A stretch of DNA of 41,532 bases, taken from the NCBI GenBank assembly GCA_963618935.1, contig CAVEVC010000075.1, positions 1 to 41,532 on the forward strand. The letters are read 5' to 3'. Below, in pieces: positions 272 through 35,735 of the stretch. This DNA comes from Clostridiales bacterium CCNA10 (GTDB lineage Bacteria > Verrucomicrobiota > Kiritimatiellia > RFP12 > UBA1067). The translations under genes and the position numbers were made by a program. Under the pieces are notes generated by a model that saw nothing but the letters and a program-made list of their open reading frames with translations, did not search any database and was not told the DNA's origin. Positions within the stretch are counted from its first letter, which is position 1. Each line of letters opens with the position of its first letter.

Positions 272-784
272 ATGTGTGAACACTGCTCACCGGCCGCGGC
301 CGGGAAGTACGCCGAGCTCGATGCGTTCATCGACGGCCTCGGGCTGGACCCGGCCGACGAGCGCCGGCGCGGGCGCCTCATCCAGATCCTCCACCGCGCG
401 CAGCACATCTTCGGCTACCTGCCGCGCGAGGTGCAGCAGCACGTGGCCGCGAAGATGGCGATCCCCGAGAGCGCCGTCTCGGGCGTCGTCTCCTTCTACA
501 ACTACTTCACCACGAAGCCGAAGGGCAAGTACGTGATCAACGTCTGCCTCGGCACGGCGTGCTACGTGAAGGGCTCCGAGGGCGTGCTGCGCGAGATCGA
601 GCGCGTGCTGGGCGTCGAGGCGGACACGCACCCGACGGCCGACGGGCTCTTCTCCGTGAGCGCGCTCCGGTGCGTCGGCGCCTGCGGCCTCGCGCCCGTC
701 ATGATGGTCAACGACCAGGTGTACGGCAAGGTGACGCCCGCGAAGGCCGTCGAAATCATCAACGAATACAAGGCGAAAGGCTGA
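272..784 (+). CDS. hydC: NuoE-like thioredoxin-fold [2Fe-2S] subunit of a multimeric [FeFe] hydrogenase (HydC / gamma)
   Basis: 170 aa. Four-Cys pattern CLGTAC ... RCVGACGLAP, typical of the NuoE/24-kDa family. It sits directly upstream of the NuoF-like and H-cluster subunits. Confidence 0.85.
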   Translation: MCEHCSPAAAGKYAELDAFIDGLGLDPADERRRGRLIQILHRAQHIFGYLPREVQQHVAAKMAIPESAVSGVVSFYNYFTTKPKGKYVINVCLGTACYVKGSEGVLREIERVLGVEADTHPTADGLFSVSALRCVGACGLAPVMMVNDQVYGKVTPAKAVEIINEYKAKG

Positions 785-792
785 GCCGCACC

Positions 793-2724: not shown

Positions 2725-2730
2725 GGCAGA

Positions 2731-2785
2731 AACCGCAAGGGACGGGGGAAAAAACCGCAAAGGACGGGGGAACCCAGGTTCCCCC
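2731..2785 (+). promoter_or_regulatory. hydB-hydA intergenic direct repeat plus hairpin (possible mRNA processing or stability element)
   Basis: AACCGCAAGGGACGGGGGA (2731-2749) is repeated as AACCGCAAAGGACGGGGGA (2753-2771). GGGGGAACC (2766-2774) pairs with GGTTCCCCC (2777-2785). No T-run follows. The hydA Shine-Dalgarno AAGGAAGGA is at 2798-2806. Confidence 0.5.
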
Positions 2786-2815
2786 GAACCCCCTCACAAG
2801 GAAGGAATTTTTGAA

Positions 2816-4582
2816 ATGGCTAACGTAACCGTCATCATCAACGGCACCAAGGTCGAGGTGCCCGCCGGCTCGACGATCCTCGACGCGGCGAACAAGATCA
2901 ACGTCCACATCCCGACGCTGTGCTACTGCCCCGACGTGGGCTGCGGCACGGCGAACAAGCCCGCCTCCTGCCGCCTCTGCCTCGTGGAGGCGACCGGCAT
3001 CCGCGGCCCGCGCAGGATCCTCGTGCCGGCGTGCGCGACCCCGCTCGCGCGCGACGGCGTGGAGGTGTGGACGAACTCGAACCGCGCCCTCAAGGCGCGC
3101 CGCACCGTCCTGGAGCTGCTCCTCTCCGACCACCCGCAGACGTGCCTCACCTGCGCGAAGAACCAGGAGTGCGAGCTGCAGAAGCTCGCCGCCGAGTTCG
3201 GCGTGCGCGAGATCCCGTTCCGCGGCGAGATGAACCAGTTCCCCGTCGACCGGTCCGCCGCCATCATGCGCGACCTCTCGAAGTGCGTGATGTGCCGCCG
3301 CTGCGAGACGGTGTGCAACAAGGTGCAGACCGTCGGCGCCCTCACGGGCAACGGGCGCGGCTTCAACGCCAAGGTCGGAACGGCCTCGATGATCCCGCTC
3401 GCGGACTCGAGCTGCACGTTCTGCGGCCAGTGCGTCAACGTCTGCCCCGTCGGCGCGATCGTCGGCGTGAGCTACGTGAAGGACGTGTGGAAGGCGATCA
3501 ACGACCCCACGAAGACCGTGATCGTGCAGACCGCCCCCGCCGTGCGCGTCGCCATCGGCCAGGAGTACGGCTTCAAGCCGGGCGAGCCCGTCACGGGCAA
3601 GCTCGTCGCCGGCCTCCGCCGCCTCGGCTTCGACAAGGTGTTCGACACCGACTTCTCCGCCGACCTCACCATCATGGAGGAGGGCCACGAGCTCGTCGAG
3701 CGCGTGAAGGCCGGGAAGAACCTCCCGATCCTCACCTCCTGCTGCCCCGGCTGGATCAACTTCCTCGAGCACCACTACCCCGACCTGCTGGACATCCCGT
3801 CGAGCTGCAAGAGCCCGCAGCAGATGTTCGGCGCGATCGCGAAGACCTACTACGCCGAGAAGATCGGCGTGAAGCCCGAAGACCTCGTGGTCGTCTCCAT
3901 CATGCCGTGCCAGGCGAAGAAGTACGAGGCCGCGCGCCCCGAGTTCGCCCCCAACGGCGTGTGGGACGTCGACTACGTCGTCACGACGCGCGAGCTCGGC
4001 GCGATGCTCCACGAGGCCGGCGTCAACCTCGCCAACCTCGAGGACGAGGACTACGACAGCCCGCTCGGCGAGTCCACCGGCGCCGGCGTCATCTTCGGCG
4101 TGACGGGCGGCGTGCTGGAGGCGGCCCTCCGCAGCGTCCACACGATGCTCACGGGCGAGAACCTCGCCGGCGACGCGATCAACTTCCGCGCCGTGCGCGG
4201 CCTCGACGGCGTGAAGGAGGCGAAGGTGGAGGTGGCCCCCGGCATGACGGTGAACGTCGCCATCGCCTCCGGCCTCGGCAACGCCCGCAAGGTGCTCGAC
4301 ATGGTGCGCGCCGACCGCGGCCGCTTCCAGGCCATCGAGATCATGGCCTGCCCCGGCGGCTGCATCAACGGCGGCGGCCAGCCCTACATCCGCGAGGACC
4401 GCCAGGGCGCGCTGGAGCGCCGCATGAAGGGCCTCTACGCGGAGGACGCCGGCAAGCCCTGCCGCCTCTCGCACGAGAACCCAGACATCAAGAAGCTCTA
4501 CGCGGAGTTCCTAGGCGAGCCCGGCTCGGAGAAGGCGCACCGCCTCCTCCACACGGCCTACCACAACAACCCGCGCGCCTAG
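2816..4582 (+). CDS. hydA: [FeFe] hydrogenase catalytic subunit (HydA / alpha; HndD-like)
   Basis: 588 aa. It has an N-terminal 2Fe-2S ferredoxin fold, a His-ligated cluster region (HPQTCLTCAKNQECELQ) and two 4Fe-4S motifs (CVMCRRCETVC, CTFCGQCVNVCP). All three H-cluster signatures are present: TSCCPGW, MPCQAKKYE and EIMACPGGCINGGGQP. Confidence 0.93.
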   Translation: MANVTVIINGTKVEVPAGSTILDAANKINVHIPTLCYCPDVGCGTANKPASCRLCLVEATGIRGPRRILVPACATPLARDGVEVWTNSNRALKARRTVLELLLSDHPQTCLTCAKNQECELQKLAAEFGVREIPFRGEMNQFPVDRSAAIMRDLSKCVMCRRCETVCNKVQTVGALTGNGRGFNAKVGTASMIPLADSSCTFCGQCVNVCPVGAIVGVSYVKDVWKAINDPTKTVIVQTAPAVRVAIGQEYGFKPGEPVTGKLVAGLRRLGFDKVFDTDFSADLTIMEEGHELVERVKAGKNLPILTSCCPGWINFLEHHYPDLLDIPSSCKSPQQMFGAIAKTYYAEKIGVKPEDLVVVSIMPCQAKKYEAARPEFAPNGVWDVDYVVTTRELGAMLHEAGVNLANLEDEDYDSPLGESTGAGVIFGVTGGVLEAALRSVHTMLTGENLAGDAINFRAVRGLDGVKEAKVEVAPGMTVNVAIASGLGNARKVLDMVRADRGRFQAIEIMACPGGCINGGGQPYIREDRQGALERRMKGLYAEDAGKPCRLSHENPDIKKLYAEFLGEPGSEKAHRLLHTAYHNNPRA

Positions 4583-10515: not shown

Positions 10516-10650
10516 ATGCTATACCAACGCGCGCTTCAGCACCGTTGTGGCAAGCACGCTTGAATTCAGACGACACCGCACCAGCTCTCTGCGAGAGGCA
10601 GAACGCAAAAACTGCATCTGCCAGTAAATAAGGATTAAAAACAGAATTGT

Positions 10651-11670
10651 TCATTGAAGCGAGCCTTCCTCTGGCTGCCTCGGTTTTTTAGGCTCGAGAT
10701 TTGTATCGTTAGAGGTTGGGTTGTAGATGGAAAGAAACTTCAACGCCGCGCCTCTTTTCCCCCCAGCGAACTGGACATGGCAAATCTGAAAATAATTTGC
10801 CGCCTTAAGTGTGCCATCCTCGTTCAACTTGCATCTGCTTCTGATAACAAGAACTTTTGACGGATCAAACAATTCCCGTTCATATCCTATGACATTTCCC
10901 CGCTTGTCGCGGCCGGCAACACGTTCCGAATAGGAAAATTCCGTCTTGTAATCTTCGTTGGTATTGGCAGTATAGATACCAATGTATTCGCTCCCGTGCG
11001 TCTTTGTCGCATAGTATCCGCCCGCGTATTTTTCTGTGAACCGCATTTTCAAGGCCATCCCTTTATACTCTTTATTATGCCATAGCCCGTCCCAATCAAA
11101 CATAACCTCCACATCAGAAGCGGTGCCGATGCCATACGGTTTTACAAAATCGTACTTCATCAAATCAAACCCAATCCACTTCTGCAGTTCCATGGTCCTT
11201 TTCCACTCTGGAGCATTGGCGATTCGTGCCTGTGGATTTTTTATGGGCAGTAATACGATTTTCCTAGCCATACCCCAAGGCTGCCATTTTGAGCCTTTTA
11301 CTTCATGTTCATGCCCCATACTGATGAAACTGACAAAATCGTTCGACCGATAATATCCTTCTCGCGAGACTTCTATTTCCAATGCCCCTTTCGTTTTCCC
11401 CTCGACCGCACAAACGCCATTAGCGTCTGTCTGGGTAATCACCCGCCGTCCTTTGGAACGGTCGGCCATATCGAAGAAAACATTGACGACGGCATCTTTA
11501 ACGGGGTCTCCCACGTCGTCCACAATTCTAAACTCAACCCTTGCCCATGCTCCTTTGTCATATGCTTTCTGGAAATCCGTGAGGTCGATTCCAGGCAAGG
11601 CGCATACTGGTAAAGCCCATAATGCCAGCATTGACATCAAGCAACCGTTAGCAAAGCCTCCTCTTTTCAT
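10651..11670 (-). CDS. secreted hypothetical protein (candidate partner or immunity protein of the giant hydrolase)
   Basis: 339 aa, low-GC codon usage. N-terminal signal peptide MKRGGFANGCLMSMLALWALPVCALPG. A segment RVEFRIVDDVGDPVKDAVVNVFF..TDANGVCAVEG resembles carboxypeptidase-regulatory-like beta-sandwich domains. Its start ATG overlaps the stop of the upstream gene (ATGA at 11667-11670). Confidence 0.8.
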   Translation of the reverse strand: MKRGGFANGCLMSMLALWALPVCALPGIDLTDFQKAYDKGAWARVEFRIVDDVGDPVKDAVVNVFFDMADRSKGRRVITQTDANGVCAVEGKTKGALEIEVSREGYYRSNDFVSFISMGHEHEVKGSKWQPWGMARKIVLLPIKNPQARIANAPEWKRTMELQKWIGFDLMKYDFVKPYGIGTASDVEVMFDWDGLWHNKEYKGMALKMRFTEKYAGGYYATKTHGSEYIGIYTANTNEDYKTEFSYSERVAGRDKRGNVIGYERELFDPSKVLVIRSRCKLNEDGTLKAANYFQICHVQFAGGKRGAALKFLSIYNPTSNDTNLEPKKPRQPEEGSLQ

Positions 11671-14600
11671 TCGAGTTCTCCTTCTTCTTTGATTTTCTCA
11701 AAAAACCTAAACACGAAAAAATATGCCATGTCCTTTATGTCGGAATGCAGCCATCTGTCGCCCCAGCTCCCGAACAGTCCATTGGGACGCGAGACCCAAC
11801 CATTGGGGCGAGATATGCCATTTTGCGTCTCATCAGTAGAGTTTAAGTTGTACATCGAGTCGTTCATTGAATATGGCCCCCATTTCATGGCGCCGCTTGC
11901 CGGCGTTCTTGATGGTATGCCCTTTGCGAGAAGCGCTCCTCGCAATAAAAGAGGGAGGGAGTTCGTGTTCATGCTCGCGGGTTGAAGTTTGAATACGGTG
12001 CTGGTCTTCAACTCCGCCAACGACATCTCCCACGCATGAGTCGGCTGTATCGTGTTATAGCCCAATGCATTTTCACGAATGCCCCAACCAGCCCAATCAG
12101 TTGTTCCCGTTCGGGCGACTAGGCCCTTGCGTCCTTTCCACAGTTCCTGCTTGTGCCATGAGTAATGCTCGAACATCTGATCCCAGTTCTCATACCCGTC
12201 AATAGCCCAGATGTTGTTGTTGCGTTCAAGTTCAAGAACATGGTCACCGGTGGAATAGAAGTTCACCGCGTAATCTGCGACATCGGCAAATCTGCCACCC
12301 CACGTCAGCAATTGCCTATCATCCCCAGCCTCTTCTTCAAAGCACTTATACCACTCGTTGGCAAACGCCGTTCTTGGATATTCGTTCCAATCCTTATGGA
12401 CGAGAACATTGGTCGGAGTCAAAGTCGTATCATACGCCTCCGCAGGGACGGCGGAGTTGCACATGATGTACTTCGACACCTGCAGCCCATAGTCTTGTAT
12501 CATCGACGAGACGACCATGTTGCCGAGCGAATGCGCCATAATGACCTTGTCGCCTTGGATGTTAGAGAGAATCGGTGCAAGTTGGCTTGCAACAACGAAG
12601 GCATTGGACGCATTTTCGTGGTAGTTCGCCGGGGCTCCGATGTTGCTTCGCCAATCGACATTGTAGAAATCTGCGTGGATGCCGGAAACCCACAGCCGCT
12701 TGAAGAGTATGTCGCCCCAGGATTCGGCCTGCGCTTCGCTGACATTTGCGCCGTGCAGGAAGATGAGGGATTTCGTGTTCTGATCATCCCATATACTATG
12801 GACTGCCGTTGAGCGGATGACGCTGTCATCGGACAGCTGCCGGCTGTTTATCCAACTGTACATCTGCTTCACGGGCAGAATCGTCATGGGCACGGAGTAT
12901 GTGTATAGCAGCTCATCGCCCACTTTTATGTCAATGCGCATTAAGGCGTACGAGGATTTCGCCTCGCACACCATAAGCCCCGAATTCTCCGAGAACTGGC
13001 TGATGGCCGAGTACGGAAGTTCAACTCCACCAACCGGCAGCGCGAGAAGAGATGCGGAGGACAAAGGTTGTCCTGCAAGGGTTGTGGCGTTCATGGTCTG
13101 CACGGAACCGGCAACGTTCCACGGAATGTCAGCAAGGCAGAAGTTGAATGAGTTTGTGTTGCCCCATTCGGGCTTGATCTCATACGAGACTCGATCGCCC
13201 CATGCCGCCTTGAATTTCTCCAAGTCCAAGGCGACGGGGAAGAAATTTATCAAGTCAAACGTACCATTGACAACAAGGTCTGAGGAATTCGCCTTCGTGT
13301 AATCCCTGTTAGGGACAATATAATCCCCATATATCTTGTCCTCGTTAACCCAGTAGTAGAACGTACGGTTGTCGAACCAGGCAGCCGAGTCGCCATCGTC
13401 GATGGAACCGTCGCGGCTGATGTCGAGACGCATCGGCGGGCGCAGCGATGTGATGCGCTGGACTGCCTGGTCCTGCACAAACTTTCCGTCGACCACGTTC
13501 CAATAGCGGAACACGAGACTGACCGCACCTGGGGTGGACGAAGTGATGTAGATTGGGAGCTCGGAGGATTCTCCACTGGTTGCGCGTTTCATCAGGGCTT
13601 TCCAGTAGGCCATTGGAAGGTCTTTCATGGGCGTAGTATCCGTGTCCAGAAGCTTGCGATAGTTCCACGTGCGCCGGTCGTAGTACCAGATCTTGAACTG
13701 GCCGGTCGCGTTCGCAAGTTCGAGATGGACATTGCCGTCCGGGAGCTTGACGTTCGTGACGAGGCGCAGGGTCGGCGCATGCCACAGGTTCGTGCAGACT
13801 GCCATGGGATAGCCGAAGCCGCTGTTTAGCGCGTTGTACGTCGGCAGATTCACTTCGCTGTCGCCCTTGATCGCGATGCCGAGCACGGTCTTGTTGCGCT
13901 GCTGGTAGATTTCCCCGTTGCGGGAGAAAGCGAGTATCGCGTCACCCACGGCCGAGCTCGGGTAGACTCCCGCAAGGTTGACGTCGCATGAGGTCTCCGT
14001 CTTGCTGAAGTTCTTGCCGTTCGAGTCGATGAGGCGCAGCCGGTAGGACTTGTAAGCCACGCCCACGTAGTTCGTCCAGTGGTCGGGACACGGACAGCAG
14101 TTCCGACGTTCGGTTGATACGTCGAGGTGTATCTGCTCGTAGAACGGAGGATCGCGGATGTACAGGACACCGCCGAGATGCTGGACGTTCCGCACGGAAT
14201 TCGTGTAGTCATCCTCGTGGAGGTGGGCGCATTGATCGTATGGGCAGGAATGTGTCGGGCATTCATCGTCAAAGTCGGTATCGTCAATTGGATTGGGTTC
14301 GCCTCCCTGATTGCCGCAGTCGAAACTGCACCATCCGTCGCACGCTCCCCAATAGCAGCGCCAATGCTCGTCATGGTTGTCGTCGGTTTCGTCGGAATCG
14401 TCGCCGTCGCCATCTGAATACCACGGCGGGTCTTCCGGCTGGTCGGGATTCTCCGAATCTGGATCGGGCGGGCGAGGACAGAAGCGGACAGTCTGATTAT
14501 ATGTAGTCTGCCCAAAGAGATACTGCGGATGTGCAAGTGTGTAGGTAATGCCGCCGGTGCTTCTTGCGGAGAAATTGCCGGTGATTGTCGCCGACCGTGG

Positions 14601-16361
14601 AGGATGGTTCTCGGCTTCAACATTATTTCCGCCCTGCCATGTGCAGCTCAATTGCCCGGCATCGCGGCTCGCCGGCAAGCTAACGCTTTTCTTCCTGGCG
14701 TTGAAATCGTGGATGCACGGTGTCGTCGCCACCGTGTTTGGGAAGTTGATGCGTCCAAAAGAGTTGAATGACGGCAGGACGCCAAATGCGAAATCCGCCG
14801 AATCGAGAGCGACCTGCAGCATGGGATCGCCACGCAGATAGAGCGGATACGTTTCGCCTTTCACTATCTGCACCAGCAGGGTTGTTTGTGGCGGTGCGGG
14901 AGTCAGCAGCCTCAATTGCGGTGCGCCCTGCGGCTGTTGTGACGGCGGAACAAGCGGAACGACTTGGTCGCCCACTATCAAATCGCCCGTACCGGAGCCG
15001 GACACGGACACACGAAGAACGGCCACGCTGTCGGATGATTGCGGATAGGCAAACGCTCCATTTGTGCTGCCGGAGTAGAACACGTGTTCGAGGGCTGTGT
15101 TCGTCGAGCCTTCTGGGTAGGCGAACGGATGGATTTCGCCAATCTTGAGCGCCATGCCATCAGAATAGGTGTCGTTTACGGAATGCGGATTCAACGGATC
15201 GGCGCGATAGATGAAGAGCTCTTCGCAATCCGAAAGCCCGTCATAGTCCGTGTCGGGGTTGTGGGGATTTGTGCCGTAGACGAAGAGCTCGTCGATTGTC
15301 GGCAAGCCGTCACCGTCCCAGTCTTGATTAGTCATATCCTCCTCGGAGAGAGGATAAAATGCCATCGATGTGATGTTTGTCGGAATCGAGTTGGTAGACC
15401 ACTCGTTGCCGCCGAATGCCGCGCCTACGAGGATGTTTGTGGCGGTGTCCGTGTTCAGCCGCGAGAGGTCGTAGCGGTAGATGAACTGGCCGTCCGGCTT
15501 GAACTCTGCCTGGAACGAGAGCGTGGCATCGGTGTCGCGGTCAAGAAGAGCGTTCTGCCAAGTCATGAGGAACGAGTTCCAGGGAGTGATTGCGTACCAC
15601 ACTTGGCTTGGCTTGTCGGCTTCGGCGAGCCAGTCCCAGTTCGCCTCCGGCACGATACCGAGCGAGGCCGTGATCGGGGCGAACCAGTAGTTTGCGGCGA
15701 TTGTGCCGCCGGTCTCGCGTATCAACGGCTCGATCTTGCCGAAAGCATAGACGCGCAGCCGATTCACCTCGTTTGTGGAGACTTGGAACGCCCAGTTCGT
15801 GAGTGCCACGTAAATCCAGTCCGTCGCCGCACCGAACGCCCGCCAGTCTGAGACGATGGTCGCGTCGGCAATCGGCGAGAAGTCGAACTGCTCGTCCGCC
15901 CCGATGCGTGTCTGGACAAAACCTCGCTCGAAGTCGGCGGCGGTGATCGTGCGCATTGTGTTCGTCGACGTGATGATGTCAATGTCGGGGAGATCGGGCA
16001 TTGCGCCGCTGTTCAGCGGCTGAAACCCGATGTGCTGTGCGCCTATTTCGGATTGCCGCTGTACGGCTCCCTGCGAAAGTCCGCCTGACGGCATGACCAT
16101 CTGCGGGACATTGTTCGTTCCGCCGCTGCCGTCGCCGTCACCATCTCCGCCACCGCCGCCCGGCTTGACGCTGGCGAAAACCCATAATGCGATGAAGAGC
16201 GAGCCGAGGATGATGCGCCCGGCCTTTGTCTGCTTCTTGAAGAACGCCGCGAAGTCCCGCAGCGGATGGACGTTTTTCTCGCGGCAGACGAGGATCAGCC
16301 ACGCGCAGAAGAACATCCACGCGGAAAACAGCAAGGCGCCCGTCCAGACCTTCGCAATCAT
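11667..16361 (-). CDS. giant (1564 aa) membrane-anchored multidomain protein with TSP3-like Ca-binding repeats and a C-terminal alpha/beta-hydrolase (lipase/esterase-like) domain
   Basis: There are two N-terminal hydrophobic helices (aa 7-26 and 48-65), then a GGGGGDGDGDGSGG linker. DWDGDGLPTIDELFVYGTNPHNPDTDYDGLSDCEELFIYRADPLNP (aa 347-392, nt 15186-15323) matches thrombospondin type 3-like repeats. An acidic Cys/His-rich block spans aa 631-765 (nt 14067-14471). The C-terminal domain has LIFLHG (oxyanion HG), a nucleophile elbow MAHSLGN (Ser1278, codon 12528-12530), STGDHV (Asp1373) and RWLHSD (His1539). Confidence 0.85.
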   Translation of the reverse strand: MIAKVWTGALLFSAWMFFCAWLILVCREKNVHPLRDFAAFFKKQTKAGRIILGSLFIALWVFASVKPGGGGGDGDGDGSGGTNNVPQMVMPSGGLSQGAVQRQSEIGAQHIGFQPLNSGAMPDLPDIDIITSTNTMRTITAADFERGFVQTRIGADEQFDFSPIADATIVSDWRAFGAATDWIYVALTNWAFQVSTNEVNRLRVYAFGKIEPLIRETGGTIAANYWFAPITASLGIVPEANWDWLAEADKPSQVWYAITPWNSFLMTWQNALLDRDTDATLSFQAEFKPDGQFIYRYDLSRLNTDTATNILVGAAFGGNEWSTNSIPTNITSMAFYPLSEEDMTNQDWDGDGLPTIDELFVYGTNPHNPDTDYDGLSDCEELFIYRADPLNPHSVNDTYSDGMALKIGEIHPFAYPEGSTNTALEHVFYSGSTNGAFAYPQSSDSVAVLRVSVSGSGTGDLIVGDQVVPLVPPSQQPQGAPQLRLLTPAPPQTTLLVQIVKGETYPLYLRGDPMLQVALDSADFAFGVLPSFNSFGRINFPNTVATTPCIHDFNARKKSVSLPASRDAGQLSCTWQGGNNVEAENHPPRSATITGNFSARSTGGITYTLAHPQYLFGQTTYNQTVRFCPRPPDPDSENPDQPEDPPWYSDGDGDDSDETDDNHDEHWRCYWGACDGWCSFDCGNQGGEPNPIDDTDFDDECPTHSCPYDQCAHLHEDDYTNSVRNVQHLGGVLYIRDPPFYEQIHLDVSTERRNCCPCPDHWTNYVGVAYKSYRLRLIDSNGKNFSKTETSCDVNLAGVYPSSAVGDAILAFSRNGEIYQQRNKTVLGIAIKGDSEVNLPTYNALNSGFGYPMAVCTNLWHAPTLRLVTNVKLPDGNVHLELANATGQFKIWYYDRRTWNYRKLLDTDTTPMKDLPMAYWKALMKRATSGESSELPIYITSSTPGAVSLVFRYWNVVDGKFVQDQAVQRITSLRPPMRLDISRDGSIDDGDSAAWFDNRTFYYWVNEDKIYGDYIVPNRDYTKANSSDLVVNGTFDLINFFPVALDLEKFKAAWGDRVSYEIKPEWGNTNSFNFCLADIPWNVAGSVQTMNATTLAGQPLSSASLLALPVGGVELPYSAISQFSENSGLMVCEAKSSYALMRIDIKVGDELLYTYSVPMTILPVKQMYSWINSRQLSDDSVIRSTAVHSIWDDQNTKSLIFLHGANVSEAQAESWGDILFKRLWVSGIHADFYNVDWRSNIGAPANYHENASNAFVVASQLAPILSNIQGDKVIMAHSLGNMVVSSMIQDYGLQVSKYIMCNSAVPAEAYDTTLTPTNVLVHKDWNEYPRTAFANEWYKCFEEEAGDDRQLLTWGGRFADVADYAVNFYSTGDHVLELERNNNIWAIDGYENWDQMFEHYSWHKQELWKGRKGLVARTGTTDWAGWGIRENALGYNTIQPTHAWEMSLAELKTSTVFKLQPASMNTNSLPLLLRGALLAKGIPSRTPASGAMKWGPYSMNDSMYNLNSTDETQNGISRPNGWVSRPNGLFGSWGDRWLHSDIKDMAYFFVFRFFEKIKEEGELE

Positions 16362-16365
16362 GGCA

Positions 16366-16905
16366 TTACCTTAATTTGATCACGAAGAAATTGTATCCGA
16401 CCTCGCAGCGGACCCATTCGCCCGGCGTCTCAGCGCCGCGTCTGACCACGCGCATCATCTTCCAGTTGTTCCTGTAGAGCCAGGCCGGAGGGTGCGTTGT
16501 GGAAAGAGCGGCGAATGCCGTCTCGCCCCCGCAAGTGGCGGAGAAATCCGCCAGAACCGAATCCATGTCAAGCGCCATGTGTACGTCGAAAACGCCAGCC
16601 TGCGCGTTGTTGGCGGCATCCGTCTCAATCCTCTCCCAGGTGCGGGCGTTTTCGATGAAGTAGCCCCCCCCCCCCCCCCGCCAGCCATAGACCGTATCGA
16701 TCTCCTCGACATCGAGGATGCCGTTCGTGTTCACATCGCATCCGAATCCGACCTCAAGATCGTTGTATTCGGTTCCGTTCAGCTGCAGATGCAGTTTCAC
16801 CTCCCGGACGTCTGTCCGGCAATCGAAGACAAGACAGCCCCCGTTGCCGATCTCGTCGGCCGGCAATCCACTCTTGAAGGAGAACGATTTTATCGACAGT
16901 TTCAT
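16366..16905 (-). CDS. hypothetical 179-aa protein, first gene of the island operon, containing a G16 homopolymer and an EF-hand-like loop
   Basis: The ORF has no signal peptide. DVNTNGILDVEE (aa 57-68, nt 16702-16737) fits the 12-residue EF-hand loop pattern D-x-N-x-N-G-x-L-D-x-x-E. The G tract encodes R76-G81. Its stop codon TAA lies inside the AAGG Shine-Dalgarno of the next gene, with a 4-nt gap. Confidence 0.7.
   Translation of the reverse strand: MKLSIKSFSFKSGLPADEIGNGGCLVFDCRTDVREVKLHLQLNGTEYNDLEVGFGCDVNTNGILDVEEIDTVYGWRGGGGGYFIENARTWERIETDAANNAQAGVFDVHMALDMDSVLADFSATCGGETAFAALSTTHPPAWLYRNNWKMMRVVRRGAETPGEWVRCEVGYNFFVIKLR
16664..16679 (-). repeat. homopolymeric tract: 16 consecutive C on the + strand (G16 on the coding strand) inside the 179-aa ORF
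   Basis: Counted directly: tag + 7 C (16664-16670) + 9 C (16671-16679) + g. It is read as cgg ggg ggg ggg ggg ggc, giving R-G-G-G-G-G. A second frame through the tract is also open (track ORF 16455-16712) and stops at 16455. Confidence 0.95.
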
Positions 16906-16934
16906 GGTGGCTTTTTCGCATCATTCGCCCATGG

Positions 16935-16954
16935 GTTTTTCGTGGCGAAAAAAC
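16935..16954. promoter_or_regulatory. near-perfect palindrome between the island promoter and the first start codon (operator-like or 5' UTR hairpin)
   Basis: GTTTTTCG (16935-16942), tgg, then CGAAAAAAC (16946-16954): 7 perfect pairs plus one bulged A. It lies 8 nt downstream of the -10 box (minus-strand sense) and 29 nt upstream of the ATG at 16905. Confidence 0.55.
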
Positions 16955-16961
16955 ATGTGAC

Positions 16962-16970
16962 ATGATACCA
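16962..16970 (-). promoter_or_regulatory. extended -10 box TGGTATCAT for the island operon
   Basis: The + strand atgatacca (16962-16970) reads TGGTATCAT on the minus strand, about 57 nt upstream of the ATG at 16905. No convincing -35 was found. Confidence 0.4.
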
Positions 16971-17026
16971 AAAATTCCACTTGCCGTGGCACGTTCCCCT
17001 TGTCTTGTCACCGGCTGAATCCCGAC

Positions 17027-17055
17027 TTACAGACCCAGCCGAAATCTGCTATACT
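17027..17055 (+). promoter_or_regulatory. putative ileS promoter
   Basis: TTACAG (17027-17032), a 17-nt spacer ending in TGC, then TATACT (17050-17055). It is followed by a leader of about 90 nt containing a GCAAC..GTTGC hairpin. The GGAG Shine-Dalgarno is at 17141-17144. Confidence 0.5.
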
Positions 17056-17153
17056 ACCCGGTCAATCACAGGAAGGCCCTTGCCAGACAGCCCTTCGCAA
17101 CGAGTGTTGCGCTGGAAACTGGCTGGCGGGGTAGTTGATTGGAGCAGCGCGAG

Positions 17154-20100
17154 ATGTTCAAGCCGGTATCGAACAAGGTCCAGTTCCCTCGGATGGAGGA
17201 GGACGTGCTCACGTATTGGGCCGAGGCCGATGTGTTCAGGAAGTCCCTCGACCGCAACCGCGGCAAGGAGCGCTACACGTTCTACGACGGGCCCCCGTTC
17301 GCGACGGGCCTGCCGCACTACGGCCACCTCCTCGCCGGCACGATCAAGGACATCGTGCCGCGCTACCAGACCATGCGCGGCAAGTACGTCGAGCGCCGCT
17401 TCGGCTGGGACACCCACGGCCTGCCGATCGAGGCCCTCGCCCAGGACGCCCTCGGCGTCGCCGGCGCCCCGGAGATCAAGGCCCTCGGCGTCGACAAGTT
17501 CAACGAGCAGTGCCGCTCCATGGTGCTCAAATACGTCTCCGAGTGGCGCAAGACCGTCACCCGCATGGGACGCTGGGTCGACTTCGACCACGACTACAAG
17601 ACCATGAACCCCGAGTTCATGGAGACGATCTGGTGGGTCTTCAAGCAGCTCTGGAACCAGGGCCGCGTCTACCGTTCGCACCGCATCATGCCCTACTCCT
17701 GGAAGCTCTCGACGCCGCTCTCGAACTTCGAGGCCGGCTCGAACTACAAGGACGTGCAGGACCCGGCCGTCACCGTGCGCGTGAAGGTCGAGCAGCCGGG
17801 CGACGCGCTGAAGGCCCCGCTCGCGCAGGAGCCGGCGGTCTACCTCCTCATCTGGACGACGACGCCCTGGACGCTCCCCGAGAACCTGATGATCTGCGCG
17901 GGCGCGGACATCGACTACGTGGCGGTGCGCGACCTCACGGACGACGCGCGCCCAATCTACGTGATGGCGAAGGTGCGGCTTTCCTCGATCTTCAAGAAGC
18001 CCGAGCAGTATGAGCGCGTCGCCGCCTTCAAGGGCGCCGCGCTGAAGGGCACCTCCTACGAGCCGCTGTTCCCGTATTTCGCGGACAAAAAGGCCGAGGG
18101 CGCCTTCCGCGTCCTCAACGACGGCTACGTCTCGACCGAGGACGGCACGGGCCTCGTCCACATCGCCCCCGCCTACGGCGAGGACGACTTCCGCGTCTGC
18201 CAGGAGGCGGGGATGCACGCGCTCGTCGACCCGCTCGACGCGAGCTGCAACTTCACCGACCAGGTGCCCGAATACGCGGGCCGCTTCTGCAAGGACTGCG
18301 ACAAGGACATCATCCGTCGCCTGAAGGACGAGGGCAAGCTCGTACACCAGGCGACGATCGTCCACGCCTACCCGTTCTGCGACCGCACCGACACGCCGCT
18401 CATCTACCGCGCGATCGACGCCTGGTACGTGAAGGTGGAGGACCTGCACGGCCAGCTCGTCGCGAACAACAACGGCGTCCACTGGACGCCCGCCTACGTG
18501 GGCGACAGGCGCTTCGGCAACTGGCTCAAGGACGCGCGCGACTGGAACATCTCCCGCAACCGCTTCTGGGGCAGCTGCATCCCCGTGTGGATCAACGACG
18601 ACGACCCGGACGACATGATCTGCGTCGGCTCCGTCCAGGAGCTCGAAGACCTGAGCGGCGTGCGCGTCGCCGACCTCCACAAGCACTTCGTCGACAAGGT
18701 CGTCGTCCGGAAGGACGGCAAGACCTACCACCGCACGCCCGAGGTGCTCGACTGCTGGTTCGAAAGCGGGTCCATGCCCTACGCGCAGCAGCACTACATG
18801 GGATCCACCGGCGCAGCCGTTTCCGACTTCTTCCCCGCCGACTTCATCGCCGAGGGCCTGGACCAGACGCGCGGCTGGTTCTACACGCTCATGCTCCTCG
18901 GCACGATGCTCTTCGGGAAGAGCCCGTACCGGAACGTCGTCGTGAACGGCCTCGTCCTCGCCGAGGACGGCAAGAAGATGTCGAAGCGCCTGAAGAACTA
19001 CCCCGACCCGACGCTCATGCTCGACACCTACGGCGCGGACGCGATCCGCCTCTACATGATCCACTCGCCCGTTGTGCGCGCCGAGAACCTGAAGTTCTCC
19101 GAGAACGGCGTCAAGCAGGTCCTCCGCGACCTGCTCATCCCGTGGTGGAACGCCTACTCCTTCTTCGTCACCTACGCGAACGTGGACGGCTTCCACGACG
19201 AGGAGGTCGTGGCCCCCGACTCGCCGAACGTCCTCGACCGCTGGATCTGCAGCTCGATGGAGACGCTGATCGCCGACGTCGCCTCCGCGATGGACGCCTA
19301 CGACCTCCAGGGCGCGGTGCGCCCGTTCGTCGCGTTCATCGAGGACCTGACGAACTGGTACATCCGCCGCAGCCGCCGCCGCTTCTGGAAGAGCCAGAAC
19401 GACGGGGACAAGCTCCACGCCTACCGCACGCTCCGCTACGTGCTCGTGCAGCTCGCGAAGGTCGCCGCGCCGTTCACGCCGTTCATCTCCGAGGCGATCT
19501 ACCGCAACCTGAAGGGGAAGGGCGACCCCGAGAGCGTCCACCTCTGCGACTTCCCCGCGGCGCGCGCCGGCGCGCGCGACCTCGCCCTCGAGCGCGAGAT
19601 GGCCGCCGTGCAGGCGATCGTCAGGCTCGGCCGCCAGCTGCGCGTCGACAACGACCTCAAGGTGCGCCAGCCGCTCGCGAAGATCCTCGTCGCCGGCGTC
19701 GGCACGCGGCTCGACGACCTCATCCTCGACGAGCTCAACATCAAGGAGATCGCCTACATCGCCGACGAGACCGCGCTTTGCGACGTGAGCTACAAGGCGA
19801 ACTTCAAGACGCTCGGCCCGAAGTGCGGACCGAAGATGAAGGCCGTCGCCGCCGCGATCTCCCGGATCGGAAAGGACGGGGCCTCTGGCGGCCCCGCGCC
19901 CCTGCCCATGGTGGTCGAAGGCGTCGAAGTCGCCCTCGACGACGTCTTGGTGACGCGCAGGCCGAAGGCCGGCATGGTCGTCGCCTCGGAGGGCGCCGTC
20001 GTGGTGGGCCTTGAGACGGCGCTCACCCCCGCGCTCGTCGCCGAGGGCCTGGCGCGCGAGTTCGTGAGCCACGTGCAGGCGATGCGCAAGGAGGCGGACT

Positions 20101-20288
20101 TCGAGGTCACGCAGCGCATCGCCGTCGCCGCCGAGGTCGACGCCGAGCTCCAGGCCGCGCTCACGGCGCACGCCGGCTACGTGAAGGCCGAGACGCTTGC
20201 GACGGCGCTCACGTTCGCCCCCTGCCCCGGCGCGGCGCCCTGCGACCTCAACGGCCACGCCGCGAAGATCGCGGTCGTCAAGGCCTGA
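17154..20288 (+). CDS. ileS: isoleucine--tRNA ligase, type 2 (eukaryote-like) form
   Basis: The track ORF (TTG at 17139) was trimmed to the ATG at 17154 (MFKPVSNKVQFPRMEEDVLTYW). HIGH motif: PHYGHLL. KMSKS motif: KKMSKRL. A length of about 1044 aa and the YDGPPFATGLPHYGH N-terminus are typical of type-2 IleS. Confidence 0.95.
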   Translation: MFKPVSNKVQFPRMEEDVLTYWAEADVFRKSLDRNRGKERYTFYDGPPFATGLPHYGHLLAGTIKDIVPRYQTMRGKYVERRFGWDTHGLPIEALAQDALGVAGAPEIKALGVDKFNEQCRSMVLKYVSEWRKTVTRMGRWVDFDHDYKTMNPEFMETIWWVFKQLWNQGRVYRSHRIMPYSWKLSTPLSNFEAGSNYKDVQDPAVTVRVKVEQPGDALKAPLAQEPAVYLLIWTTTPWTLPENLMICAGADIDYVAVRDLTDDARPIYVMAKVRLSSIFKKPEQYERVAAFKGAALKGTSYEPLFPYFADKKAEGAFRVLNDGYVSTEDGTGLVHIAPAYGEDDFRVCQEAGMHALVDPLDASCNFTDQVPEYAGRFCKDCDKDIIRRLKDEGKLVHQATIVHAYPFCDRTDTPLIYRAIDAWYVKVEDLHGQLVANNNGVHWTPAYVGDRRFGNWLKDARDWNISRNRFWGSCIPVWINDDDPDDMICVGSVQELEDLSGVRVADLHKHFVDKVVVRKDGKTYHRTPEVLDCWFESGSMPYAQQHYMGSTGAAVSDFFPADFIAEGLDQTRGWFYTLMLLGTMLFGKSPYRNVVVNGLVLAEDGKKMSKRLKNYPDPTLMLDTYGADAIRLYMIHSPVVRAENLKFSENGVKQVLRDLLIPWWNAYSFFVTYANVDGFHDEEVVAPDSPNVLDRWICSSMETLIADVASAMDAYDLQGAVRPFVAFIEDLTNWYIRRSRRRFWKSQNDGDKLHAYRTLRYVLVQLAKVAAPFTPFISEAIYRNLKGKGDPESVHLCDFPAARAGARDLALEREMAAVQAIVRLGRQLRVDNDLKVRQPLAKILVAGVGTRLDDLILDELNIKEIAYIADETALCDVSYKANFKTLGPKCGPKMKAVAAAISRIGKDGASGGPAPLPMVVEGVEVALDDVLVTRRPKAGMVVASEGAVVVGLETALTPALVAEGLAREFVSHVQAMRKEADFEVTQRIAVAAEVDAELQAALTAHAGYVKAETLATALTFAPCPGAAPCDLNGHAAKIAVVKA

Positions 20289-20328
20289 TCCCCCGACAAG
20301 GCACGCGCGGCTCGGCACGCGCGGCTTG

Positions 20329-20500: not shown

Positions 20501-22177
20501 ATGAAAATCGCCATTGGCTCCGATCACGGCGGCTTTGAACTGAAGAAGGCGATCCTCGCCAGGTACACGGACGCGGACGTGCTGGACTTCGGTCCGGAGA
20601 CGGCGGACCCCTGCGACTATCCCGACTACGCCGACGACGTCGCGGAGGCGGTCGCCAGCGGCGCGGCCGACTTTGGCGTGCTCGTCTGCACCACGGGCAT
20701 GGGCGTGACGATGGCCGCGAACCGCTTCCAGAACGTGCGCGCCGCGCTCTGCCGCGACGAGAAGGACGCCGCGCTCGCGCGCGCCCACAACGGCGCGAAC
20801 GTCCTCTGCCTCGGCCAGGACCGCACGAAGCCCGCCGCCGCCCTCCGCATCCTCAGGACGTTCGTGGCGACGAAGGTCGACGCGGCCGGCCGCCACGCGC
20901 GCCGCCGCGCGAAGCTGGAGCGCGCGAGGCGCCTGAGCGACGTCAGCGGCCTCGCGAAGGCCGACCCCGAGGTCTACGCCGCGGTCAAGGCCCAGGTCGT
21001 GCAGGAGGACACGGAGATCAACCTCATCGCCTCCGAGAACACGTCGAGCCGCGCCGTGCGCCTCGCCGCCGGGTCCGTCCTCATGAACAAGTACGCCGAG
21101 GGCTACCCGGGAAAGCGCTGGTACTCGGGCTGCCTGCCGGTGGACGCGGCGGAGGAGCTGGCCTGCCGCCGCGCGTGCGCGCTCTTCGGCGCGGAGCACG
21201 CGAACGTGCAGCCGCACTGCGGCTCGGCCGCGAACATGGCCGTCTACTTCGCCACGATCAAGCCCGGCGACACGATCATGTCGCTCGCGCTCGACCAGGG
21301 CGGGCACCTCTCGCACGGCTCGCCCGTCAACTTCTCGGGCAAGATCTACCGCATCGTCCCCTACACGGTCGACCGCAAGACCGAGCGCATCGACTACGAC
21401 GCCCTCGAGAGGCAGGCGCTGGAGGTGAGGCCGCAGATCCTCCTCACGGGCGCCTCGGCCTACCCGCGCACGATCGACTTCAGGCGCATCCGCGAGATCT
21501 GCGACAAGGCGGGCTGCATCATGCTCGTGGACATGGCCCACATCGCGGGCCTCGTCGCGGGCGGCGCGCACCCATCGCCCGTCCCCTATGCGGACTTCGT
21601 GACGACGACGACGCACAAGACGCTCGGCGGCCCGCGCGGCGGCATGGTCCTCTGCAAGGAGAAGTGGGCGAAGGCGCTCGACAGCGCGGTCTTCCCCGGC
21701 ATGCAGGGCGGCCCGCTCGAAAACGTCATCGCCGCGAAGGCGGTCCTCTTCCGCGAGTGGATGGGCCCCGAGAAGAAGGGCTACGCCCAGCAGGTCGTCA
21801 AGAACTGCCAGGCGATGTGCAAGGCGGTGCAGGACCGCGGCTACCGCATCGTCTCGGGCGGCACGGACAACCATCTCTTCCTCGTGGACGTCAAGTCCAC
21901 GAAGGGCATCACGGGCAAGGAGGCCGCCGCCGCCCTCGACGCGGCCGGCATCGTCGTCAACAAGAACACGATCCCCTACGACGCCGAGTCGCCGTTCAGG
22001 ACCTCCGGCATCCGCGTGGGCACGGCCTCCATCACGACGCGCGGCATGAAGGAGAAGGAGGCCGCGAAGATCGGCGGCTGGATCGCGGACGTCCTCGACG
22101 ACATCGCGGACGTGAAGGTGCAGGCGAAGGTCAAGGCGAAGGCGAAGGCCCTCACGGCCCGGTTCCTCGTGCCCTGA
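20501..22177 (+). CDS. glyA: bifunctional fusion: ribose-5-phosphate isomerase B (N-terminal about 150 aa) plus serine hydroxymethyltransferase (C-terminal about 410 aa)
   Basis: The N-terminus [57 protein letters not shown] matches the RpiB/LacAB family, including the active-site Cys region. From [51 protein letters not shown] (PLP-Lys) it is a full-length SHMT. It is a single uninterrupted 558-aa ORF. Confidence 0.9.
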
Positions 22178-35726: not shown

Positions 35727-35735
35727 TGCTATACT
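35727..35735 (+). promoter_or_regulatory. extended -10 box TGCTATACT, 8 nt upstream of the LRR lipoprotein ATG (probable leaderless transcript)
   Basis: The sequence reads tgctatact atcccgcc ATG(35744). No Shine-Dalgarno is present. The spacer is nearly identical to the one at the outer-membrane gene (atcccgc). Confidence 0.45.

Follow-up and report, generated by a model that had tools for sequence, protein, structure and literature searches.

The window, meaning the whole stretch of 41,532 nucleotides that was analysed, carries a gene cassette that resembles a toxin–immunity module of a kind not yet described. In the best reading, to which we assign a probability of about 0.4, the cassette would encode an exported lipolytic effector together with a cognate immunity-like partner. 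The order of the cassette is conserved: a gene for a small secreted protein (small) is followed by the gene for a giant protein (big) and then by 1 to 5 genes for exported proteins (down). The central gene, big, lies on the minus strand at 11667..16361 and encodes 1,564 aa. The first-pass annotation had proposed this open reading frame, and it proved to be real; because 302 homologues of the protein were found, more than 100 of them full length at 38 to 77% identity, the gene is far beyond chance. Its ATG start lies 9 nt past an AAGG and 4 nt past the stop of the upstream open reading frame. The relatives, all unnamed, are from MAGs of gut and rumen Kiritimatiellia. The first-pass annotation had missed the strand as well as the cassette, its insertion and the partner gene.

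The C-terminal domain (aa 1190-1564; 11670..12794, minus strand) is very probably a real exported serine hydrolase. The alpha/beta-hydrolase fold proposed earlier was borne out by Pfam, where Abhydrolase_6 matched the isolated domain with 28.9 bits (cut-off, 26.3), by an AF2 model of the C-terminal 375 aa (pLDDT 87.2, pTM 0.90), and by Foldseek, where the best 50 of 61 PDB matches at E ≤ 0.001 were alpha/beta hydrolases throughout (probability 0.87 to 1.00, mostly at least 0.94). The likeness to solved structures was remote, with TM values of 0.2 to 0.3 over about 130 aligned residues. A script placed the motifs LIFLHG, MAHSLGN, STGDHV and RWLHSD at aa 1199, 1275, 1370 and 1536, as had been claimed. 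They hold the oxyanion motif H1203-G1204 (nt 12750-12755) and exactly the triad predicted, namely Ser1278 (nt 12528-12530), Asp1373 (nt 12243-12245) and His1539 (nt 11745-11747), all on the minus strand. In the model, the key residues follow strands b3, b5, b7 and b8; the triad takes up the canonical positions, Ser behind b5, Asp behind b7 and His behind b8, and about 165 aa of inserted cap separate Asp1373 from His1539. Across homologues, Ser1278 was invariant (111/111), as was His1539 (109/109); position 1373 was Asp or Glu in 110/110, and the HG motif was kept in 110 to 111 of 111.

With slightly better than even odds, the enzyme is lipolytic, and it is predicted to be a lipase or a phospholipase A-like esterase. 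The nearest specific Pfam family was DUF900, matched by 10 of 20 family members; the window's own domain scored 12.4 bits, under the cut-off of 20.5. The secreted bactericidal phospholipase A cinquedea of Haloferax larsenii has an S-H-S-L-G nucleophile motif and homologues that are mostly DUF900 proteins (bioRxiv 10.64898/2026.06.10.730825); the corresponding motif in the window's hydrolase is A-H-S-L-G. The lipases PlaB and BlEst2 were among the PDB matches of the hydrolase in Foldseek, and weak fold matches in a viral library were of lipase, PGAP1, LCAT and LysB types. The families named in the first-pass annotation (DUF676, PGAP1, Lipase_2, LCAT and Tle) gave no match in Pfam and sequence searches, save for DUF676 in one relative (0.0079). 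Its description of a lipase/esterase effector is made plausible by the DUF900 lead, the lipase-type fold matches and the neighbourhood, but it is unproven.

The giant protein begins with a membrane hairpin (16167..16343, minus strand), detected by a hydropathy scan and by the conserved N-termini of homologues. TM1 (aa 7-26) and TM2 (aa 48-65), the latter followed by a Gly/Asp linker, correspond to the only 19-aa windows with a Kyte-Doolittle mean above 1.6 (starts 5-10 and 47-50), in agreement with the two helices seen before. The loop between them, REKNVHPLRDF..KKQTKA, is basic (6 K/R versus 2 D/E), and hairpin and loop are kept in homologues. By the positive-inside rule, the loop is predicted to lie in the cytoplasm, with the hairpin as anchor and the bulk of the protein outside, which supports the envelope anchoring proposed earlier. 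The same C-terminal domain on other scaffolds occurs in proteins with Sec signal peptides or the same hairpin, and an extracytoplasmic site would suit the TSP3 repeats and the Cys residues.

Between hairpin and hydrolase, the protein appears to be built largely of beta-sandwiches. The approximately 280 aa formerly called unassignable include a domain (aa 158-335; 15357..15890, minus strand) with the top column conservation, the most conserved part of the protein, which models as a beta-sandwich (AF2 strands, pLDDT 60-85) and gave no family match in a Pfam search. It is followed by two conserved TSP3-type repeats of a predicted Ca-binding kind (aa 347-392; 15186..15323, minus strand), with DWDGDGL at 347 and DTDYDGL at 370 as first reported. 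D347, D349, D351, G352, E358, D370, D372, D374, D378 and E381 are invariant. The earlier assignment held for the family, where TSP3_bac matched 11 of 12 aligned mid-regions at E ≤ 0.01; the exception was the window's own copy (E = 0.014), which at 15.6 bits fell below the Pfam threshold of 25. The next block (aa 393-439; 15045..15185, minus strand; ..PFxxPEGSTNTxxEHxFYSG(S/T)TNG..) has invariant columns from P412 to N434 and was poorly modelled by AF2. Further predicted beta-sandwich domains (aa 440-626; 14484..15044, minus strand; AF2 strands, pLDDT 75-86) contain the motif PCIHD (548-552), of which C549, I550, H551 and D552 are invariant.

The acidic Cys/His-rich linker (aa 629-765; 14067..14477, minus strand) was delimited by composition, low conservation and gaps. 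A script counted 10 Cys, 8 His and 28 Asp/Glu in aa 650-765, but the proposal of a discrete metal-binding or disulfide-knotted module is unsupported as stated. The block is mostly a variable, gappy, low-complexity linker, missing or replaced in some homologues and poorly modelled (pLDDT of about 30 for aa 629-697). The only invariant elements in this region are the CCPCPDH at its end (aa 755-761; nt 14079-14099), C628 and the C549 of PCIHD. The following stretch (aa 766-1171; 12849..14066, minus strand), in which no motif had been recognised before over about 430 aa, is modelled as consecutive Ig-like beta-sandwich domains (AF2 pLDDT 75-92). With the overall mid-region model as query, Foldseek returned PADI6 matches and then generic Ig arrays; the top two rows were 9xrl chains without a protein name, rank 10 was 9fmn_B (PADI6), and SGBP-B and the S-layer protein SbsC were among the fold matches.

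The down gene (10651..11670, minus strand; 339 aa) has a start that overlaps the stop of big (ATGA), an overlap kept in about 30 of 45 loci, and a down gene was present after big in every locus with a readable 3' side. The protein combines a signal peptide with a transthyretin/CarboxypepD_reg-like sandwich and a further, unknown domain that ends ..NPT(S/P)NDTNLE; down proteins are exported, and many homologues are lipoproteins. Hydrolase and adjacent down protein pair class for class, nearly one to one: H1 with D1 in 19/21 cases, H2 with D2 in 7/7, H3 with D4 in 3/3, and H4 with D5, H5 with D6 and H6 with D3 in 2/2 each. Pairwise identity of the down proteins tracked the C-terminal half of the hydrolase (Spearman 0.78), not the mid-region (0.34). 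The pair was also found behind an unrelated 2,492-aa beta-helix/PMP scaffold (hhalign E = 1.9e-38). Down arrays hold 1 to 5 genes per cassette, with up to 4 to 5 paralogues, and one is broken by an R-M system; non-adjacent copies belong to classes cognate to other hydrolase classes (loci L027, L028, L042 and L004). Linkage alone could explain the pairing, because hydrolase and down gene adjoin and recombine as a block.

The cassette is horizontally mobile in gut and rumen Kiritimatiellia, and its gene big is a recombining mosaic of modules. In the window, the inserted DNA (10525-17046) spans 6.5 kb, is low in GC and separates GH2 from ileS. It is flanked by 8-bp direct repeats, TGCTATAC, at 10517..10524 and 17047..17054 (plus strand; pattern count 4 versus 0.08 expected), which mark the junctions in an alignment with empty sites, and six related contigs carry the empty site. 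The cassette has a GC content of about 0.55 in hosts of 0.47 to 0.70, and MAGs hold several copies of different classes. The flanking genes are unrelated from locus to locus and include none for polysaccharide utilisation. The window's copy is clipped at both ends. On one side, the 5' end of a second down paralogue (10522..10654, minus strand; 44 codons) is cut at the insertion edge; it matched the 5' ends of down genes in L031, L027 and L022 by blastn, and its translation reads MNNSVFNPYLLADAVFAFCLSQRAGAVSSEFKRACHNGAEARVG against ..CFSQRVGAVSREFENACHNGAEARVEF in L031. The gene small (16366..16905, minus strand; 179 aa), with an EF-hand-like loop DVNTNGILDVEE and an in-frame G16 run (16664-16679), lacks the signal peptide present in homologues, and the copy may be incomplete.

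The hairpin of the giant protein would insert into the cytoplasmic membrane, leaving about 1,500 residues outside the cytoplasm: the conserved beta-sandwich, the Ca-binding TSP3 repeats, the variable acidic linker, the Ig-like stalk and, last, the serine hydrolase. The hydrolase would act as a lipolytic esterase and antagonistic effector, with the down protein as its cognate inhibitor or immunity protein and the additional paralogues as spare or orphan immunities. These roles of the pair are proposed tentatively, with circumstantial support for an effector from the cognate downstream partner, the arrays, the mosaicism and the mobility; the topology, the lipid substrate and how (or whether) another cell is reached are likewise inferred. 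The mosaicism, the multi-class copies per MAG, the GC content, the empty sites and the repeat-flanked insert resemble the behaviour of a conflict system. Searches of the cassette proteins gave no match to Tle, Tox-ABhydrolase, Tli or Imm families, nor to PADLOC or PHROGs entries; the cassette encodes no secretion or delivery apparatus, and no known secretion system was matched. In a diderm, it is hard to see how a protein anchored in the inner membrane would reach a target cell, which counts against an effector. So do the scaffold, which among homologues was never found with another C-terminal fold, unlike classical polymorphic toxins, the beta-sandwich architecture of down, the clipped cassette and the remote structural likeness.

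That same architecture is common among surface and adhesion proteins, and an unlikely alternative is a degradative or nutritional enzyme, in which an envelope stalk presents a carbohydrate esterase or foraging lipase to host- or feed-derived polymers, with small and down as accessory binding or anchoring parts. An Ig-like stalk, Ca-binding repeats and beta-sandwich partners are typical of surface enzymes and adhesins, SGBP-B and SbsC point the same way, and large surface proteins with lipase domains remodel extracellular polymers (Zhang et al., PMC3482391). The hosts degrade glycans in gut and rumen, and GH2 lies beside the cassette. Since the empty site is present in relatives, however, GH2 is a neighbour by the chance of where the cassette inserted, and at other loci the cassette was not accompanied by recurrent CAZyme, CBM or PUL genes. 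Nor would a nutritional enzyme be expected to show class pairing one to one, arrays with orphan partners, mosaicism or movement between species. Decay would explain the clipped insert, the down gene cut after 44 codons, the small gene without signal peptide and with a G16 run, and the weak consensus matches that were all an upstream promoter search gave. We nevertheless think it improbable that the cassette in this genome is a decaying fragment without current function, as the 4.7-kb big and first down open reading frames are intact with all invariant residues kept, and the G16 run is in frame.

Other roles for the pair were also weighed. Lipase-foldase operons are established, as in the Lif foldases of Pseudomonas and Burkholderia lipases, and an adjacent, translationally coupled, co-varying, exported down protein could be a Lif-like folding helper or activator of a lipase/esterase rather than an inhibitor. 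This is rather improbable, as down matched no lipase-chaperone family and is beta-rich, not helical, and tandem arrays with non-cognate classes are hard to explain. A conjecture, and an improbable one, is an acyl- or peptidyl-transferase acting on the producer's own envelope, which would process the giant protein or attach it or the partner lipoprotein to an envelope component, forming a variable surface structure (an adhesin or a phage/host-immunity decoy) and no weapon. The domain is always extreme C-terminal on very different giant exported scaffolds, and surface antigens also typically show mosaic variation; the conserved HG oxyanion motif and the large cap, by contrast, suggest that the substrate is a small-molecule or lipid ester.

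Compared with known systems, the giant protein resembles giant Ca-dependent surface proteins with Ig-like extender domains, such as Bap and RTX adhesins, in the great length of its beta-sandwich-rich extracytoplasmic region and in its Asp-rich, Ca-binding repeats, and it gave a profile match to the Ca-binding region of Staphylococcus aureus Bap (7c7r; overlapping profile positions 171-254, E = 7e-5). Unlike them, it lacks a T1SS signal, an LPXTG motif and RTX repeats, ends in a catalytic domain and has a cognate partner gene. In LipA-Lif operons, too, the gene directly downstream of that for an exported lipase-like enzyme encodes a dedicated partner that is itself exported, but down has no Lif homology, is beta-rich and occurs in arrays with non-cognate classes. 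DUF900 (PF05990), the nearest specific family, and cinquedea, likened by description, share the x-H-S-L-G motif and a secreted enzyme, whereas the window's domain has about 375 aa with its cap, fused to a 1,200-aa stalk, and for cinquedea, a single-gene unit, no partner gene has been reported (bioRxiv 10.64898/2026.06.10.730825). The preferred effector-immunity reading draws on T6SS Tle/Tli pairs and Tox-ABhydrolase toxins. The cassette differs from Tle/Tli in having no sequence match to DUF2235, other Tle, or any Tli or Imm family, and from both these and polymorphic toxins in having no T6SS, PAAR, VgrG, Rhs, TPS or LXG trafficking module, an N-terminal hairpin as anchor, and one constant fold with no alternative toxin set. 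Alpha/beta-hydrolase toxin domains do occur at the C-termini of polymorphic toxins (Zhang et al. 2012, PMC3482391), and in the Tle3-Tli3 pair the immunity protein is a lipoprotein (PMC9860674). The cassette has in common with both systems a large exported protein that terminates in a GxSxG-type alpha/beta-hydrolase, a partner that is exported (often as a lipoprotein), is encoded directly downstream and co-varies with the enzyme, and tandem and orphan partner copies in recombining, mobile loci.

The 1564-codon ORF at 11667-16361 was confirmed, though on the minus strand. Its ATG is preceded by AAGG and located 4 nt past the stop codon of the upstream ORF, and its stop codon overlaps the start of the downstream ORF (ATGA). 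A search of 5.8 billion proteins returned 302 relatives of the encoded giant protein, more than 100 of them full length with 38 to 77% identity, indicating that the gene is conserved and is not a chance ORF. All relatives came from metagenomes or metagenome-assembled genomes (MAGs), and none had a name other than "hypothetical." Every motif quoted in the first-pass annotation was found at its residue position, and the only strongly hydrophobic 19-residue windows (aa 5-28 and 47-68) coincided with the two N-terminal helices proposed there. The hairpin with its basic loop (REKNVHPLRDF..KKQTKA; 6 K/R and 2 D/E) is conserved. By the positive-inside rule, the loop would be cytoplasmic and the residues after position 66 extracytoplasmic.

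In an alignment of 111 homologs, the highest conservation was observed at aa 140-460, a region comprising a beta-sandwich without a family match, two TSP3-type repeats with invariant Asp, Gly, and Glu positions, and an invariant block, PEGSTNT..EHxFYSG(S/T)TNG. Results for the proposed TSP3-like calcium repeats were mixed. The DxDxDG..D..E residues were invariant in all 111 sequences, but the TSP3_bac profile (PF18884) stayed below its cut-off of 25 bits in the window protein (15.6 bits, E = 0.014). The same profile matched 11 of 12 aligned mid-regions (E <= 0.01, best 1.5e-7), the exception being the window's own copy. The only PDB sequence match in the mid-region was between the family profile and the calcium-binding region of Staphylococcus aureus Bap. 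For the proposed Cys/His/acidic module, the composition of aa 650-765 was reproduced (the 10 Cys, along with 8 His and 28 Asp or Glu), but the stretch at aa 629-697 is gappy and varies among homologs; only CCPCPDH (755-761), PCIHD (548-552), and C628 were invariant in the 111-homolog alignment. The AlphaFold2 (AF2) model of aa 136-1185 was of moderate confidence (pLDDT 68), with 75 to 92 for the sandwich domains and approximately 30 for the TSP3 region and the acidic Cys-rich stretch at aa 629-697. Fold matches of this model of about 1050 aa were generic Ig-like arrays and PADI6 (9fmn_B, at rank 10, with the top two entries unnamed and the aligned part of the model not specified). We read the middle of the giant protein as a putative stalk.

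Scans with the full-length protein gave no match in Pfam or NCBIfam; matches came from domain-wise scans alone. The region aa 1180-1564 matched Abhydrolase_6 (clan CL0028) with E = 2.3e-6 and 28.9 bits, above the curated cut-off of 26.3. Among 20 diverse family members, 13 matched Abhydrolase_6 and 10 matched DUF900 (PF05990), the latter at E <= 0.1 with a best value of 1e-6. One relative, P0203, scored 24.3 bits against DUF900. The window domain itself scored 12.4 bits against DUF900 (E = 0.11; gathering cut-off, 20.5). Judged by these profiles, it is a neighbor of DUF900 rather than a demonstrated member. The AF2 model of the domain, built from a 20-sequence alignment, had a pLDDT of 87.2 and a pTM of 0.90. 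A Foldseek search against the PDB returned 61 matches at E <= 1e-3, and the 50 listed were all alpha/beta hydrolases (probability 0.87 to 1.00, mostly >= 0.94), including pyrethroid hydrolase, SABP2, PhaZ, PlaB phospholipase, and BlEst2 lipase. These matches were distant (E of about 1e-4, TM of 0.2 to 0.3, and approximately 130 aligned columns), and no hydrolase relative emerged when the PDB was searched by sequence, whether with the protein or with profiles.

The Ser-Asp-His triad predicted in the first-pass annotation passed all of the checks that were run, which covered secondary structure, order along the chain, and conservation. In the model, the first core strand (model residues 19-23; canonical b3) ends with LIFLHG, which contains HG at 1203-1204. 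Ser1278 of the HSLG motif directly follows the strand at model residues 93-98 (canonical b5), Asp1373 follows that at 186-190 (canonical b7), and His1539 follows that at 352-355 (canonical b8). Conservation of the serine was one of the points on which the assignment could be checked, and Ser1278 was invariant in 111 of 111 full-length homologs. His1539 was invariant wherever present (109/109), position 1373 was acidic in 110 of 110 (Asp in 81 and Glu in 29), and H1203-G1204 was kept in 110 to 111 of 111; E1308, D1347, and R1349 were likewise invariant. The alpha/beta-hydrolase fold of the C-terminal domain is supported by the Pfam match, the AF2 model, and Foldseek together. The giant protein is very probably exported and membrane anchored and carries at its tip a serine hydrolase that looks active.

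Of the 4176 cluster representatives in the hydrolase family, 1209 matched at E <= 1e-30. Among the best 150 of the 4176, which are all close family members, the domain was always located at the extreme C-terminus of giant exported proteins. It also occurs on unrelated giant exported scaffolds with RCC1, beta-helix, PMP, MAM, and many TSP3 repeats. Assigning a substrate to an alpha/beta hydrolase is notoriously difficult, and the matches that bear on it here are all weak. Fold neighbors in a viral library were of the lipase, PGAP1, LCAT, and LysB types. Cinquedea, a recently described secreted bactericidal phospholipase A of Haloferax larsenii, has homologs that mostly match DUF900, and its nucleophile motif is HSLG, as here (bioRxiv 10.64898/2026.06.10.730825). 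Because relatives of this domain match DUF900 as most cinquedea homologs do, because HSLG is shared, and because of the types of the viral-library neighbors, a lipid or ester substrate is a slightly better than even guess for this domain.

The giant gene has the same cassette neighbors in 45 loci from other assemblies. A small gene (16366-16905, minus strand, 179 aa in the window) lies 5' of it; in other loci its product has approximately 200 aa, a signal peptide, and an EF-hand-like loop, and it is occasionally found 3'. On the 3' side, one to five paralogous proteins of 305 to 390 aa are encoded (in the window, 339 aa at 10651-11670, minus strand), here called downstream proteins. These proteins have a signal peptide or lipobox and an N-terminal sandwich that is transthyretin/CarboxypepD_reg/Big_1-like, and their C-terminal motif NPTPNDTNLE is conserved. 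About 30 of the 45 loci show a 4-nt overlap between the stop codon of the giant gene and the first downstream gene, and none of the 360 relatives of the downstream family is named. The recorded hosts are gut or rumen Kiritimatiellia or carry the submitter labels Lentisphaerae, Verrucomicrobia, or "uncultured bacterium"; the exceptions are a 2.3-kb contig binned as Mailhella sp. and a marginal match (E = 1e-5) in an Actinomycetota MAG. Several MAGs hold two or three cassettes, and the genes flanking the cassette vary between loci. Upstream of one homologous cassette in a MAG (locus L001, 809-9315), an adjoining low-GC island with HTH, HATPase_c_3, DUF932, SLFN/AlbA_2-HATPase_c_4, and HNH_2 genes resembles a defense island or an integrative element in content.

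The modules of the giant gene differ in history. Compared with the window, the L022 locus shows 32 to 40% identity in the stalk, 79% and 75% in the hydrolase, and 65% in the downstream protein. The L001 locus shows 78 to 84% in the stalk, 48% in the hydrolase cap, and 37% in the downstream protein, and a third locus (L029) has only the N-terminal domain in common with the window (80%). When 39 loci were compared pairwise, the identity of the adjacent downstream protein followed that of the hydrolase's C-terminal half (Spearman 0.78) and not that of the stalk (0.34). After clustering, the hydrolase class (H1 to H6) predicted the class of the adjacent downstream protein (D1 to D6) almost one to one: H1-D1 in 19 of 21 loci, H2-D2 in 7/7, H3-D4 in 3/3, and H4-D5, H5-D6, and H6-D3 each in 2/2. 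Second or later downstream genes sometimes belonged to a class cognate to another hydrolase class (L027, L028, L042, and L004). In all readable loci, a downstream gene lies directly 3' of the hydrolase domain. On other scaffolds, a 2492-aa protein is followed by a homolog of the downstream gene with a 4-nt overlap (hhalign, E = 1.9e-38), and a 3407-aa protein is followed by a putative overlapping 399-aa ORF. The recurrence of the downstream gene behind the hydrolase on another scaffold indicates that the two form a scaffold-independent unit. An identity table inspected by eye gave no clear pattern of covariation between the small gene and the N-terminal domain. In one locus (L152, 3364-5352), a DNA methylase and an NgoPII-type restriction enzyme interrupt the array of downstream paralogs. 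Six downstream homologs (L016, L025, L015, L011, L018, and L005) have an in-frame stop within the region aligned to the window copy; these are either pseudogenized array members or alignments that run past the true stop.

In the window, the giant gene lies within a low-GC island (GC of 0.48 to 0.58 vs about 0.70 on either side). The GC content of the cassette is approximately 0.55 regardless of host GC (0.47 to 0.70) and drops in a consistent 5'-to-3' gradient (about 0.60 to about 0.48). Six metagenome contigs (L070 to L075) preserve the empty site, in which GH2 (91% identical) is followed directly by ileS (90 to 93%) across a 96-nt spacer. The window insert at this GH2/ileS site is 6522 bp (10525-17046) and is flanked by an 8-bp direct repeat, TGCTATAC, at 10517-10524 and 17047-17054. 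The window contains four copies of the octamer, where 0.08 would be expected, one of them at 35727-35734 just before another gene start; the empty-site relatives have a single copy, between the GH2 terminator and ileS and just upstream of ileS. It resembles an extended -10 box (TGnTATACT). Both ends of the insert are clipped. At one end, a 44-codon 5' fragment of a second downstream paralog (10522-10654, minus strand) overlaps the stop codon of the intact downstream gene (ATGA) and runs into the junction, indicating that the donor had at least two downstream genes; at the other, the small protein lacks the signal peptide that 22 of 22 aligned homologs have.

A transposon-like element with terminal inverted repeats was rejected: the 8-bp direct repeat alone bounds the island, with no inverted or long repeats. 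A phage origin was also rejected, with no relatives in IMG/VR contigs. No transposase or integrase was found inside the insert, no tRNA genes were found, and an Rfam scan of the whole window gave no match. The locus is a clean natural case of recent insertion with the empty site preserved. Separately, the small gene contains a run of 16 G residues (16664-16679, minus strand); no other homopolymer in the window reaches 9 bases. The G run is in frame (WRGGGGGYF vs WRGGRYF in homologs), has no equivalent in homologous small genes, and could be either a tract for phase variation by strand slippage or an artifact of assembly or sequencing. Just upstream of ileS, approximately 75 nt (17062-17136, plus strand) are missing from the closest relatives, which have approximately 17 nt instead. 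This segment folds as a long hairpin (-39 kcal/mol, z of -2.65), has no Rfam match, and may be a small insertion or a leader element. An opposite-strand ORF at 17049-20318 was discarded as an operon member, as codon-position GC showed the real gene to be the plus-strand ileS. A functional tie to the adjoining GH2 beta-galactosidase was ruled out by the empty site in relatives.

Other genes in the window (all on the plus strand) were also recorded. A 558-aa ORF (20501-22177) appears to be a gene fusion, with an N-terminal RpiB/LacAB ribose-5-phosphate isomerase domain joined to a complete serine hydroxymethyltransferase domain. A bacterial alpha-2-macroglobulin of 1895 aa (27609-33296) is followed by a PBP1C-type transglycosylase/transpeptidase (33065-35542), the known A2M-Pbp1C pairing. 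At 559-4582, a NuoF-like flavoprotein with Fe-S domains adjoins an [FeFe]-hydrogenase large subunit; the two resemble part of a multimeric hydrogenase, possibly an electron-bifurcating one, which would fit an anaerobic gut organism.

We propose, with a probability of roughly 35 to 40%, that the hydrolase is an effector and the downstream protein its cognate immunity protein. The argument is that the partner is obligatory, translationally coupled, exported, and class matched, that noncognate copies occur in arrays, that modules are shuffled, that several classes occur per genome, and that cassettes have spread between species. Precedents are the Tox-ABhydrolase domains in polymorphic toxins (Zhang et al. 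2012, PMC3482391) and the Tle-Tli pairs (PMC9860674). Several results count against this proposal. Pfam and NCBIfam scans matched no known toxin, immunity, or trafficking family; among homologs, other toxin folds never occur on this scaffold; and no delivery machine is encoded. In the same scans of the cassette proteins, no RHS, HINT, PrsW, TPS, LXG, or PAAR domain was found, and no type VI Tle family (Tle1-5, such as DUF2235) matched at E <= 10. The cassette has only three genes, its neighbors are GH2 and ileS, and no link to VgrG, PAAR, or T6SS genes was seen. PADLOC and PHROGs profiles gave nothing better than E = 0.16.

Other explanations fit parts of these data. Adjacency and linkage alone could explain the class pairing. 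A Lif-like foldase relationship between the hydrolase and the downstream protein is a rival account of the same obligatory pairing. The enzyme could instead be a nutritional surface esterase or a transferase that acts on a variable surface structure of the cell itself. The window copy could also be a decaying copy of the cassette; clipped ends speak for this and intact catalytic residues against it. If the effector-immunity proposal is wrong, the class-for-class pairing of enzyme and partner still marks a specific protein-protein system. If it is true, the cassette would encode a new toxin domain family and a new immunity family and pose a delivery problem, namely, how a membrane-anchored stalk of 1500 residues gets to its target.

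Communities of the rumen and hindgut abound in Kiritimatiellia, almost all of them uncultured, and we know of nothing on how they compete. A wider reading is speculative and, taken as a whole, rather unlikely: gut and rumen Kiritimatiellia, and relatives with other giant scaffolds, would possess a so far undescribed, secretion-system-independent class of interbacterial or anti-host weapons, each a giant exported stalk tipped with a DUF900-like phospholipase and neutralized by exported beta-sandwich immunity proteins of a new family, with cassettes moving between species and reshuffling by module. Literature searches covering Kiritimatiellota as well as surface proteins, thrombospondins, and toxins turned up no account of the giant family, and neither a name nor a paper was found for this family, the hydrolase subfamily, or the downstream family. 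The hydrolase family is large, yet unnamed and without a characterized member. The parts are known, namely, the alpha/beta hydrolase, the TSP3 repeats, and the Ig-like stalk, and the logic resembles that of known effector-immunity modules. As in polymorphic toxin systems, cassettes recombine here, and the arrays of downstream genes resemble orphan or poly-immunity arrays. In contrast to those systems, in which alternative unrelated C-terminal toxins are carried on a conserved N-terminus, the same hydrolase fold is present in all homologs of this scaffold.
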